From Octopus vulgaris (Eukaryota): a stretch of DNA of 64,000 nucleotides. Location: NCBI GenBank assembly GCA_951406725.2, contig OX597815.1, positions 199,826,001 to 199,890,000 on the forward strand, written 5' to 3'. The first letter of the stretch is position 1, and every line of letters starts with the position of its first letter. Under the pieces are notes generated by a model, which saw only the letters and a program-made list of their open reading frames with translations, made no database searches and had not been told where the DNA came from. A program made the translations under genes and the position numbers. Shown piece by piece: positions 10,952 to 62,481 of the stretch.

Positions 10952-11176
10952 TCGCCATGTTGATTCGTTAGTTACTGCACGCATTTTTTTCTCTCCTCTC
11001 CTTTTTTCTCTCCTTCTTTTGTGTTTTTCTCTCTGTGTATCTTTCTGTTGAAGAGCGTAGGCTCGAAACGTTAAAGACTTGTTTTATTTATATTTCCTGA
11101 GCGCCATACTAATACAATTGTTTGTTTGTTTTCTACCTGCCTTCGTCTTTTGTCTATTTTCATAAAGCTTCCCGTT
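10952..11176 (+). mobile_element. Short (TA)n-inserted element with variant minimal hammerhead core (subfamily 1; Penelope-like terminal repeat)
   Basis: Sits between two (TA)n arrays. 11040-11077 reads TCTTT-CTGTTGAA-GAGC GTAG GCTC-GAAA-CGT-T-AAAGA. Homologs at 18810, 41905 and 51060. Confidence 0.7.
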
Positions 11177-11268
11177 ATATATATATATATATATATGCAG
11201 GCAAATTTAACTAATTTTCCGAAGATTGAAAACTTGATGAACGGTCTAAATCGATGTTCGAAACTTAT

Positions 11269-11579
11269 TGACAGTCTCATAAGGGAATTACACCACCGCC
11301 CTAGGAAACATCGACGTTTCCTGTCGTGTTTGACACATTTTCTGTGTCCTTATATTTGCAAAGGTTGCAGCCATCTCAGCTAGCGAGACTTACTACCCTG
11401 AACTGACGATGAGCAATACACTCAGAAACATATGTCGTCAGGTGCTTAGTCCCTGCTGGCGGGGTGATTATCTCCCCTTTGCAAATATAAGGACACAGAA
11501 AATGTGTCAAAGCCGACAGGAAACGTTGATGTTTCCTAGGGCTAAATGACGGTGGTGTAATTCCTTTACGGGACTGTCA
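11269..11579 (+). mobile_element. Long inverted-repeat element enclosing a hammerhead ribozyme
   Basis: Arms 11269-11364 and 11476-11579 are reverse complements, perfect over 36 bp (11329-11364 with 11476-11511). Confidence 0.85.
11397..11442 (+). ncRNA. Type I hammerhead ribozyme with minimal palindromic stem III
   Basis: CCTGA-A, then CTGACGA (11403-11409), stem II TGAG-caataca-CTCA, GAAA (11425-11428), palindromic ACATATGT, GTC triplet ending at 11436, then G-TCAGG. There is one A.G mismatch at the base of stem I. Confidence 0.85.
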
Positions 11580-12505
11580 CGTTATGTTGACAGTATACAA
11601 CCACTCTATCGCTCCACCACCGCTCATGTCTCTCTGAGTCATTTAGAAATTCAATATTTCTCATTCTTTTATTTATAACCAGAAAAGAATGCTACGGTTG
11701 GTCTTTGCAGATTTAGGTGTAACTGTAAAAAATGATGTCGAAATGCACACATTTTAAACCAGTCTTTACACTTGTGCACTATTTTTCTTAGCACAAGTAC
11801 ATAATATTGTGTTGCACTTTTTTACTGTGATATAAATATGTTCAAAGAAAACACCCCTTTGGCATTATAGAAAAGCAACATTTAGTTCATCATGTGAGAA
11901 ATCCGATATTGTTTATTAAATATGGTGCTATACTTCCAAATCATTGATAGCGTTAATTGATGGGCGTTAACAGTGGCTCCAGTTATGCCTTCGCTAACGG
12001 TTGTTTTGCATCACTACAAGAAAGAGAGGATCTTATATATTCTAATTAAATATATATGAATTGTAGTAAAGGAAAACAAAACCATACAAATTGGATTACA
12101 GAAGAGAAACTGCAATAATATTACTGCAATAAGATGTAACCGAAGCTGAACTGATGAAAATCAGCTTTAGTTATCACTATAAGACTCTGCTTTTCGCAAT
12201 CAAAATAATCTTTAATATTTGATATTTTTCCCAGGTGTTTATATATTTCTAGTTAACGTTTTAATGCACCTCAGTATGTTAATACAAATTTCCTGATCAA
12301 ACGCAGCAGATTCATATGAATATGTAGACTAATTGAATATTCAGCAATCAAAGACGATGCAAAAACAAAGTGAGAATAATTTAAGGCAATAGATGTAGTG
12401 TACTTTCATGTCTAGTATTTTCAGTACTTCTCTCTCCTTCTACCTTCTCTCCCTCCATCCCCACCTCTCTTTCTGTGGTGTGTGTGTGTGTGTGTGTGTG
12501 TGTGT

Positions 12506-13125
12506 GTACCTTTTTGAACGACGCCAGATATTGTGTATACTTTTTCTTGAACGAGTCGCCCGTCATTCCGATATACGTCTATGCTACTCCGTTGGGGTCC
12601 GCAATTTTGGTCTTGTATACGAGTTCCTTCTCGAGACAGTTGTTGTTTATATCGCAGCGGTTTGGGAATCTACAGTTGCATTGTCTTTCGAGGGTGTTTC
12701 TGATGTGTTTATTTTTATTATGATTAAATATTATTGACCCTATATTGGGGAAGCAACTATAGGTAACTTCTGCAGTATTTTTGTTGAAGTTCTTGTGGTA
12801 TTTGTGTGAATGTGGAAAGTGGCTGTCTATTAGTCTTAAGAATTGCCTAGCTGTGTTAGTAGCTACATTCATGCTATATGGTGGTTTAAATCATAAGATT
12901 TTCCTCTGTCTGCGTCTTCTTTGTCTATTTATATTTAATTCAGTGTAGTATATACTACTCTTAAAGTTGGATTTTTCTAATGCAGCATTATAATATGGGG
13001 CGGATGTTTCAAAAATGTCTTTGACGGCAGATAAATTGGAGACGTGCCTGCTAATGTTGTTAACCATATATTTGACTACAGCTGATGGGTGGTTGGAACC
13101 TATGTCTATGTATGGGGCTTCCTCG
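12506..13125 (-). pseudogene. Penelope-like element fragment: RT C-terminal region, linker and start of the GIY-YIG endonuclease
   Basis: Joined frames give YIDIGSNHPSAVVK...RKIL*FKPPYSMNVATN...YSCFPNI...CNCRFPNRCDINNNCLEKELVYKTKI...*TYIGMTGDSFKKKYTQYLASF. These carry the SNHP, F-x-PPYS, CxC..C..C and VY...YIG motifs typical of Penelope ORFs. Stops and a frameshift are present. Confidence 0.9.
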
Positions 13126-14199
13126 TATATATATATATAAATATACATACTTGGAAATGGATGTGTGGGATTCAATCATATATTATAAATAGTATATATA
13201 TGTGCATCTGTACATACATATGTGTACATACTTTCATATATATGTACATACATAGGCATATACGAGCACAGGACGTCATAGGACATAAACAATATGAAAT
13301 ACGAAAACAACATGGTATCCATATATGCATACATATATATACATATATATATATATACATATATATGTAAGTATGTACATATATGCATGTATATATGCAC
13401 ATATATATATTATGTTATTATTATTATTATTATTATTATTATTATTATTAATATTATTATTATTATTGTTATTATTGGCCTGCTCGCTTAGCCAGCGGGG
13501 TGGCGTCATTCGAAGGCTAAAACAACAACAACAAACAAACAATTATTATTATTATTATCATCATTATTATTATTATTACTAAGATATATATATATATATA
13601 TATATATATATATATTTATATATATATGATAAAAATGATAAAAACAGAATCAATAATATAGGCGATTTCAGTCCAAAAAAGCATTAATAGCTGAAGCATT
13701 AAAATTAATCAAAGACATACTAAGTATGTCTACTTGCTCGAAATAACAGTCATAACTCTCATTTAAATCACTGAAAAAACTGATGATAACTACAGAAATC
13801 AACCATCTGCGGGCAAACAGGCCAGGACAATCTCTCAGCATACATTCAAGTATTTGGACTCACGTGGACCGGTTTCTGGATTGGCATTATAGCCTCACGT
13901 TCCTGAACACGCGTTACCATTCAAATCTTAACATACATTCATACATACATGGTGGTTGTGCCCCCTCGTTATCGAGTATGGCCATTGCACGAAGCTTAAT
14001 CAATGTTGTTATCATGCAATACCTGTACAAGATTTTTTTTAAAGTGCACTGAGTCAATCCCACTCACTAAGCAACAGCAGCCATAATCCGAAAAGAAGAA
14101 CAAGTCAACATCATCAGTAACCACTGAGCCGCAGATTTTATTTCGGAGTTATCTTCTCCTAGAAGGATGCCCTAAGAAAGGCTAGGAGTCATTCACTAC

Positions 14200-14622
14200 T
14201 AATGCATACATACATACATACATACATGCATACATACATACATACATACATACATACTTACATACTTACATACATACATACATACATACATACATGCATG
14301 CATGCATACATACATACATACATGCATGCATACATACATACATACATACATACATACATACATACATGCATACATACATACATACATGCATGCATGCATA
14401 CATACATACATACATGCATACATACATACATACATACATACATACATACATACATACATACATACATACATACATACATACATACATACATACATACATG
14501 CATACATACATACATACATACATACATACATACATACATACATACATACATACATACATACATACATACATACATACATACGTACACATACATACATACA
14601 TACATACATACGTACACATACA
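14200..14622. repeat. (CATA)n tetranucleotide array with CATG variants
   Basis: Direct inspection. Confidence 0.97.
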
Positions 14623-60786: not shown

Positions 60787-61181
60787 GTGGAGGCGCAATG
60801 GCCAAATGGTTAGGGCAGCGGACTCGCGGTCGGAGGATCGCGGTTTCGATTCCCAGACCGGGCGTTGTGTGTGTTTATTGAGCGAAGACACCTAAAGCTC
60901 CACGAGGCTCCGGCAGGGGATGGTGGCGACCCCTGTTGTACTCTTTCGCTCCAACTTTCTCTCACTTTTTCTTCCTGTTTCTTGTCCCCGACTTCTTACG
61001 CAACCGCTGAGCCTGGAGGCTCTCGGTGTCGGGGGTTGACCTGCTTTCTCTTCTGCGGGTCTTACGAATAGCAAAGGACCACGTTTCGGACTTCTCCCAC
61101 TACAAGCAATCCTGAGGCGTGATCTTGCGAGCTCTGGGACGAAGACCGCTTCGCTCAACAAACAAACAAACAAATAAAGAA
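60787..61181 (+). mobile_element. SINE group C (head C1 plus structured tail T3, (AAAC)n end)
   Basis: TSD ACAGCAACACCA at 60775-60786 and 61182-61193. Confidence 0.92.
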
Positions 61182-61711
61182 ACAGCAACACCAACCAGGG
61201 CGGGTAACTTCAGCAACAGTGGCCTCAACTTCAGCTATAAAACGGGAAGTACTTCTCCACCAATAACAGCAATTACACCAACAGTGAAGGCATCAACAAC
61301 AAAAACTACAAAAAAAAAAGCCCCACCCCAAAGGCCACAACATCCTCGACATCAGTAACAGCAACTGAAAATTTTAAAGGAACAAGAGCGACAAAGAAGA
61401 AAACCTAGCACGACATTCCTCTTACCACTTCTGGCTACTCAAGCATGTCACGTGGTAAAGACAGCGAAAAAGCCTGAAAATATTTCGACGAAAGATAAAA
61501 TAGAAAAAGAATGTAAAAAAAATAAAAAAATAAACGTCCGGGCGGTTTGAGGTAACGGTAGAAATCCATCTCCACCGTTTCTAACAACACCAATGCTATC
61601 AGTACCGTTAACATCACTGGCACTACATGTAAGACCAACACTATATATATATATATATATATATATATATATATATATATATATATATATATATATATAT
61701 ATATATATATA

Positions 61712-61915
61712 TGTAGGTCCCGGGTTGATTCGGGGTTAACCACAGTAAGTAAGGTACTCAATACATAGCAGAGTAAAATTAATTTATTATATAGAAGGAG
61801 CTTTACAGGACTAGTACTGTTTCATTCAAGAGAAATCTTCAGGAAGCTCCTTCCTGAAGATTTCTCTTGAATGAAACAGTACTAGTCCTGTAGAAGCTCC
61901 TTCTATATAATAAAT
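61712..61915. mobile_element. (TA)n-inserted element with a 65-bp-arm palindrome and hammerhead-like cores (Penelope-like inverted end)
   Basis: 61782-61846 versus 61850-61915, one indel and a 3-nt loop. Each arm reads CTGAAGA-T-TTC tctt GAA-T-GAAA-CAGTACTAG-TC. Confidence 0.8.
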
Positions 61916-61966
61916 ATATATATATATATATATGTGTGTGTGTGTGTGTGTGTGTGTGTGTGTGTG

Positions 61967-62268
61967 TGAAGGCGTAATGGCCCAGTGGTTAGGGCAGCGG
62001 ACTCGCGGTCGGAGGATCACGGTTTCGATTCCCAGACCGGGCGTTGTTTATGGTTATTGAGCGAAAACACATAAAAGCTCCACGATGCTCCGGCAGGGGT
62101 TGGTGGAGACCCCTGTTGTACTCTTTCGCCCTAACTTTCTCTCACTCTCTCTTCCTGTTTCTTGAGTAATGCTGCGATGGACTGGCGTCCCGTCCAGCTG
62201 GGGTGAACACATACGCCACAGAAACCAGGAAACCGAGCCCATGAGCCTGGCTAGGCTTGAAAAGGGTG
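61967..62268 (+). mobile_element. SINE group C (head C1 plus tail T2)
   Basis: The head matches 60787 and the tail matches 2831-2950. Confidence 0.9.
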
Positions 62269-62297
62269 ACTATATATATATATATATATATATATAT

Positions 62298-62481
62298 GGC
62301 GATTGTTTTCCTCTGTCTTCCTTTCTCTGGATCTTTCCTTCTCCTATGTTTCCGACGAAGAGCTCCGCTCGAAACGTTAAACCCTCCTTCTTTCCTTCTT
62401 TAATGAGCGTCCAATAATACTATATTTGTTCCACGTCCTCGCGTTTTTGTGTTTTTTTGTGCTTTCTTGTTTGGATTAACT
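62298..62481 (+). mobile_element. Hammerhead-like short element, subfamily 2, in (TA)n
   Basis: 62348-62382 reads GTTT-CCGACGAA-GAGC TCC GCTC-GAAA-CGT-T-AAAC. Confidence 0.75.

Follow-up and report, generated by a model that had tools for sequence, protein, structure and literature searches.

A 64,000-nt window of the Octopus vulgaris genome (assembly GCA_951406725.2, contig OX597815.1, positions 199,826,001 to 199,890,000 of the forward strand) was found to contain six dispersed repeats, here called c1 to c6, that carry a hammerhead ribozyme-like motif or its remains. The original prediction had placed these copies at 11040 (+), 18887 (-), 42001 (-), 51138 (+), 49893 (-) and 62348 (+), and all six were found there (Table 1). 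It had also described them as elements of about 200 bp; the sizes span 110-245 bp, and c2 measures about 110 bp. Pairwise identity within subfamily 1 (c1-c4) is 68-84%, the two members of subfamily 2 (c5 and c6) are 96% identical, and identity between the subfamilies is 56-60%. All six copies are solitary, with no partial tandem or inverted arrangement, as would be expected of short truncated copies, and a profile search built from the six identified no seventh member in the 64-kb window (next match, E=1.1). In our view, these repeats are probably hammerhead-bearing tails (pseudo-long terminal repeats, pLTRs), likely truncated at their 5' ends, of two Neptune-like families of Penelope-like elements (PLEs) inserted at (TA)n, with uridine at core position 6 (U6) as the consensus of subfamily 1 and with a source motif that would cleave weakly, as a dimer and aided by protein.

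Table 1. Coordinates of the six repeats, their hammerhead motifs and other features of the window.
Feature	Position	Strand	Description
Copy c1, subfamily 1	10953..11175	+	Flanked on both sides by (TA)n arrays
Copy c2, subfamily 1	18815..18926	-	Decayed; cut off at stem I; fused to the head of a tRNA-type short interspersed nuclear element (SINE); outside (TA)n
Copy c3, subfamily 1	41903..42145	-	5' end longest of the six; (TA)n at 5' end; TA then (TG)n at 3' end
Copy c4, subfamily 1	51061..51267	+	(TA)n arrays on either side; SINE adjoins
Copy c5, subfamily 2	49793..49991	-	(TA)n arrays on either side
Copy c6, subfamily 2	62298..62481	+	(TA)n arrays on either side
Motif of c1	11040..11077	+	Core CUGUUGA (U6) plus A9a; stem II GAGC/GCUC; ACGU palindrome; H17=U at 11072; 5-bp stem I
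Motif of c2, decayed	18887..18922	-	CUAUUGAA; stem II mismatch; CGU-H missing; missed by descriptor
Motif of c3	42001..42036	-	Core CUGUGGA; U6 at 42029, N7 at 42028; H17=U at 42005
Motif of c4	51138..51173	+	Core CUGUAGA (U6); H17=A at 51169
Motif of c5	49893..49927	-	Core CCGACGA (C4) plus A9a; loop UCC; H17=U
Motif of c6	62348..62382	+	Core CCGACGA (C4); H17=U
Junction at c2	18926..19017	-	tRNA-type SINE head joined to c2; the SINE 3' part does not come after the copy
Junction at c4	51036..51067		TTGAGCC on either side of a (TA)8 run at the c4 5' end
Junction at c5	49986..49992	-	c5 5' end opens with a 6-nt inverted copy of the c5 3' end; may be chance
Hammerhead-like motif, Hydra-like	11397..11445	+	Within inverted-repeat element 11269..11579; canonical core CUGACGA; palindromic stem III ACAUAUGU; 5-bp stem I after one mismatch
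Broken piece of PLE open reading frame	12500..13115	-	CxCx5C linker and GIY-YIG start, Hydra-like; ends in (CA)n
zf-RVT domain	20352..21245	+	E 2.9e-8; 3' end of a long interspersed nuclear element; second piece near 63225..63986
Hairpin	61807..61889		83 bp, near-perfect; like a miniature inverted-repeat transposable element

A minimal hammerhead with a variant core

The predicted order of stem I, core, GAGC/GCTC, GAAA, CG-U-H and stem I is intact in five of the six copies. The exception is c2, in which G5 has become A, stem II contains an A-C mismatch and the CGU-H segment is gone. All five intact motifs are of type I, built from stems I and II plus a palindromic 15.2-16.2 lacking loop 3. A minimal-hammerhead descriptor allowing at most one core mismatch picked exactly these five and nothing else, and 60 local dinucleotide shuffles produced no motif match at the strict setting (60/60 runs) and two in total at the loose one. 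What had been read as an 8-nt core is really a 7-nt core plus an unpaired base, 9a. This unpaired base between A9 and 10.1 and the pair G10.1-C11.1 are both features of the PLE minimal hammerheads described by Cervera and de la Pena (2014, PMC4209133), which lack loop 3, have a palindromic 15.2-16.2, cleave slowly and only as dimers, and occur mostly as dispersed single copies. Besides their type I form, the window motifs share with those of metazoan PLE pLTRs in that report a loop-less ACGU stem III, 9a, G10.1-C11.1, a short stem I, U-rich flanks and a mostly dispersed, single-copy occurrence. The closest published motif found is that of an Acropora digitifera Neptune element in the same report (stem II GGGC/GCUC, CGU), which, like the window motifs, has a 4-bp stem II ending in GCUC. 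The loop-less ACGT palindrome proposed as stem III is a published hallmark of PLE minimal hammerheads. The further claim that it could form only between two molecules did not hold, because partner motifs can sit in one tandem transcript.

The core follows neither CUGANGA nor UUGANAA: U6 is present in 4/4 copies of subfamily 1 and C4 in 2/2 of subfamily 2. The representative motifs in Fig. S3 of PMC4209133 have CUGANGA or a compensated UUGANAA, and none listed there carries U6 or C4; since the search of Cervera and de la Pena required the catalytic boxes, variants with U6 or C4 would have been missed. The window motif is thus a variant of the PLE minimal hammerhead and not a canonical member. 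It also lies below the detection level of Rfam models: no hammerhead family matched over 10960-11600, and in a scan of the window the 150 listed of 611 matches all resembled hairpins of microRNA families. By folding z-score, the six motifs did not stand out (-0.8 to +1.8). The change in stem I between subfamilies, which had been read as covariation, is a single C-G to G-C pair, or one event, and stem II is identical across subfamilies, so none is shown there. Over 19 hand-picked motifs, 4/4 stem I pairs change on both sides, with few independent events, while stem II is invariant in this comparison by design of the search pattern. Both subfamilies also keep a GAG(C/U)G and a UAAUAC stretch some 20-30 nt downstream of each motif (for example at 51189-51205); base pairing of this GAGC with the stem II 3' strand would be possible, and the UAAUAC stretch lies before a pyrimidine tract.

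Contigs of the runs X3 (23,366), X7 (10,199) and X9 (5,000 records; three organism labels) were aligned to the subfamily 1 copy c3 at 80% likeness, differences were listed from 5% upward, and positions were mapped to hammerhead numbering. X9 may be RNA and was not counted as evidence of transcription. All four bases occur at N7 (U 25-37%, A 26-30%, C 13-18%, the rest G), and H17 is A in 57-66% and otherwise U, with G17 not listed at 5%; these percentages weight short contigs by depth, should not be read as copy numbers, and describe only relatives that lie within 80% of c3. The CpG at 15.2/16.2 varies in 3-8% and the first loop base in 4-10%. At positions 3, 4, 5, 6, 8, 9, 9a, 12-14, 15.1 and 16.1, and at the eight stem II bases, the difference table lists no alternative. 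The weakest row outside the difference table is not position 6, because the plus-strand-A tallies are fully explained by the listed rows. N7 is free and the NUH triplet (H not G) is kept, as in other PLE minimal hammerheads, and the variable core positions are exactly 2 of 13, the two that a hammerhead leaves free (chance 1 in 78 by post hoc arithmetic). The core deviation had been proposed to be a consensus and not decay, with a canonical consensus named as the observation that would speak against this; in subfamily 1 the consensus carries U6 across the X3, X7 and X9 contigs, and U6 is fixed. The consensus of this very abundant subfamily therefore has U6. Such a pattern might also arise if the core changes were neutral founder mutations in already dead motifs, copied passively: one mutation in a master copy passes to all of its descendants, and catalysis may be dispensable. 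However, U6 and every other core base are common to many source lineages, among which N7 takes four different bases and H17 two, and we regard this explanation as very improbable. A contribution of U6 to a 3' splice site (UAG with A7) was dropped as the main cause, N7 being fully variable.

No natural U6 hammerhead was found in the literature searched; Lunse et al. 2017 and Arkhipova et al. 2017, outside its coverage, could contain such variants. On viral contigs, a looser U6 pattern gave 117 matches, none of which folds as the motif. Perreault et al. (2011, PMC3088659), the sole paper found for U4C, cite this change from a viroid, in which activity is lower but infection is still possible, and describe A6C as an active but slow phage variant; A6U is absent from the main text of that paper. 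The variants described there are rare, whereas U6 here is the consensus state in a repeat of very high abundance. What is new in the finding is a constrained core that has U6 fixed.

C4 and a look-alike family in metagenomes

Both core changes had been put forward as possible new variants. This stands for A6U, but U4C is not new in kind: besides the viroid example, it is frequent in PLE-like tails from metagenomes. Metagenome contigs were scanned with a pattern derived from the window motif that held stem II and GAAACGT constant and left positions 4-7 free (43/64 parts covered), which yielded at least 120 loci (L001-L120) in 103 distinct contexts. Their cores were CUGACGAA in 43 contexts, CCGACGAA, the U4C core of the window, in 38 and others in 22. 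One common downstream tail is shared by 84 of these contexts; at position 4 they have 42 C, 41 U and a single G, and at position 6 they have 83 A, a single C and no U. The published Acropora motif is almost the same as that of this tail family. A peptide resembling the C-terminus of GIY-YIG lies upstream on the same strand in 11/103 contexts, with cores CUGACGAA in seven, CCGACGAA in three (one match weak) and CUGAUGAA in one. L007 has a Cys linker plus a GIY-YIG-like stretch, and L008, with C4, has a direct C-terminal piece plus an inverted one. The metagenome loci with CCGACGAA are mostly a PLE tail family of another animal, and C4 is a common, recurrent variant in those tails that is not special to the window.

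Many of the metagenome copies start just upstream of stem I or bear an inverted motif copy at the 5' junction, and in the folding model C4 weakens pairing of the core with a downstream CGUCAG in this family. The open-core pattern had no match on viral contigs. It identified seven loci on genome contigs, six of them prokaryotic-looking and lacking a matching stem I; the seventh, L125, is a contig of a bacterial metagenome-assembled genome with the tail of this animal PLE family and its C4 motif, probably host DNA in the bin. A tblastn search with the PLE remnant of the window against the 120 metagenome loci gave no match.

Ends, target sites and the parent element

The repeats had been said to lie mostly in (TA)n arrays. 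Four of the six do have (TA)n on both sides, whereas c2 is not in a TA array. In all, 9/12 copy ends abut a (TA)n array, compared with 1.9% of non-array positions in the window, a count that is partly circular because 5' ends were drawn at array edges. Where aligned contigs run on past the 3' end, their loose ends likewise consist of (TA)n (in X3, 67 contigs with an agreement of 0.53). Targeting of TA repeats is therefore supported by the copy ends, by the loose-end consensus and by published work, in which (TA)n is the stated target of several PLE clades and 5' truncation is typical (Craig et al. 2021, PMC8557442). The six window copies share their 3' ends and begin at six different positions. 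In X3, X7 and X9, an identical 30-nt extension runs past the 5' end of c3, so the family continues at least 30 nt further 5'; the extension is absent from the 64-kb window, and summed contig depth on c3 drops steadily toward the 5' side. Staggered 5' ends, a shared 3' end and a 5' extension fit 5'-truncated tails of a longer element, and both this truncation pattern and the microsatellite bias, seen at 9/12 window ends and at the loose ends, are those of the 3' ends of canonical endonuclease-containing (EN+) PLEs. Junction details at c2, c4 and c5 are given in Table 1.

The original prediction called the repeats non-autonomous; in appearance, they are rather the 5'-truncated ends of a longer element. 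They could nonetheless form a discrete family, SINE-like or retrozyme-like and a few hundred bases long, moved in trans by PLE proteins. Such a family would account for the lack of a visible open reading frame, the very high copy number and the uniformly short window copies (all 110-245 bp), and non-LTR retrozymes have been argued to derive from PLE pLTRs (preprint 10.64898/2026.07.22.740005). Animal non-LTR retrozymes (PMC7229834) also resemble the repeats in being short, non-coding, probably PLE-mobilised and equipped with a type I hammerhead. On the other hand, retrozymes are tandem, with canonical motifs and circular RNAs, whereas the window copies are solitary and minimal. The 5' ends of the six copies differ, and the family extends past the longest of them. 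Of 15 joints in the main listing, one is back-going and tandem-like, in a single contig, and a few more back-going joints with inserted letters are listed separately; this rarity speaks against a retrozyme, although short contigs hide such junctions. We consider a discrete non-autonomous family improbable. The word hammerhead is absent from the main text of the Octopus vulgaris repeat paper (PMC13282606).

The Penelope link, by comparison, is supported by the motif architecture, by published PLE features and by the same-strand GIY-YIG-like peptides of the look-alike family; a motif downstream of a putative open reading frame for reverse transcriptase and GIY-YIG was seen for that family, not for the window families. 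The window does contain a broken PLE reading frame (Table 1), 39-56% identical to three proteins, and its CxCx5C linker is of the type assigned to the Hydra clade by Craig et al. (PMC8557442). Hydra hammerheads have a longer stem III, so this remnant is probably not the parent. The Hydra and Naiad clades (PMC8557442) are known from octopuses and, like the repeats, have (TA)n targets and strong 5' truncation. However, the extended stem III of the Hydra clade is absent from the window motifs, the listed Hydra-1_oBim motif differs from them, and Naiads lack canonical motifs; octopus Naiad and Hydra families were rejected as parents because of this motif mismatch. The 9-mer CTCGAAACG of the window motif did not occur in the searched supplement text of PMC8557442. 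A separate hammerhead-like motif in the window, the seventh, has a canonical core (Table 1); it resembles listed Hydra-clade motifs and has no Rfam match. The Anolis Poseidon element (PMC11167929) is like the window repeats in having a pLTR hammerhead, AT-rich targets and a fixed internal start of reverse transcription, and unlike them in its canonical core and in an activity measured as protein-assisted.

Cleavage or fold alone

The following scheme would account for these observations. An autonomous PLE would cut (TA)n and start reverse transcription from a fixed point near the 3' end of its RNA, usually stopping after 110-250 nt, which would leave copies with shared 3' ends and staggered 5' ends. 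As published PLE motifs suggest, two motifs of a tandem transcript could pair their ACGU palindromes into stem III, and a lone genomic copy, unable to form it, would be silent. The fixation of U6 alongside variation at N7 and H17 may reflect selection on a hammerhead-like active site in the source elements, in which case U6 and C4 would be tolerated low-activity variants. Residual cleavage by the U6 form is predicted, although we put this only slightly above an even call; the best guess is that such activity is weak and depends on dimer formation and protein. Counted in its favor is that many source lineages have retained G5, G8, G12 and the NUH rule. The hammerhead of a lizard PLE requires its protein for cleavage (Frangieh et al. 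2024, PMC11167929). The broader proposal that a high-copy PLE family of several related animals fixed U6 in a constrained hammerhead as an active variant, rescued by dimer or protein and belonging to a class missed by CUGANGA searches, is more tentative, and we lean somewhat against it.

Several observations count against the interpretation of the repeats as PLE tails with a weakly active motif. With respect to activity, CUGA-turn mutants of another hammerhead were low in a saturation study (Roberts et al. 2023, PMC9901934), the natural A6C variant cleaves at less than 0.1 per minute (Perreault et al. 2011, PMC3088659), and PLE insertion in vitro works without hammerhead catalysis (Frangieh et al. 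2024, PMC11167929). By nearest-neighbour energies, a zipped form is more stable than the active dimer by 7.7-16.6 kcal/mol in the four window motifs modelled, although the calculation ignores the core. With respect to origin, no open reading frame is linked to either subfamily in the 64-kb window, the PLE remnant has the linker of the Hydra clade, whose published hammerheads extend stem III further, and the identification of peptides upstream of the metagenome motifs was based on motifs, Pfam giving no match. Subfamily 2 is known from two window copies only, and raw-read run X22 placed only four reads on c3, which is uninformative.

The same low activity of CUGA-turn mutants and dispensability of catalysis would suit an alternative in which the repeats have the same origin but the U6 motif no longer cleaves, its fold persisting because it serves the PLE reverse transcriptase, or RNA processing, as a structural or protein-binding signal. 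Also in line with this, no RNA ends were observed at the cleavage site of the lizard PLE (PMC11167929), and the folding model pairs U6 with A15.1, zipping the core onto the palindrome (probability 0.6-0.98; c1, c3 and c4). However, zipping of core and palindrome is predicted with or without the variants, depending on N7, and canonical cores with C7 or U7 are predicted to zip as well. It is not U6-specific in the model, and a role of U6 as an off-switch acting in this way was rejected. Moreover, G5, G8 and G12 are fixed, G17 stays below 5%, and N7 and H17 vary, as catalysis would require. We therefore view loss of cleavage with retention of the fold as unlikely, and continue to favor tails of PLEs whose source motif cleaves weakly.

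In architecture and TA context, the elements are ordinary for PLEs, and they are ordinary retroelement debris. What they bear on is the role of the PLE hammerhead, a motif that is widely conserved, yet cleaves slowly in vitro and could be dispensed with for insertion in one reconstituted system. A fixed change in the CUGA turn, with the catalytic guanines and NUH kept, is a natural experiment that can show whether cleavage, or just the fold, is under selection. Descriptor searches undercount such motifs, and if U6 motifs do form an active class, some PLEs reported to be without hammerheads may carry such variants.

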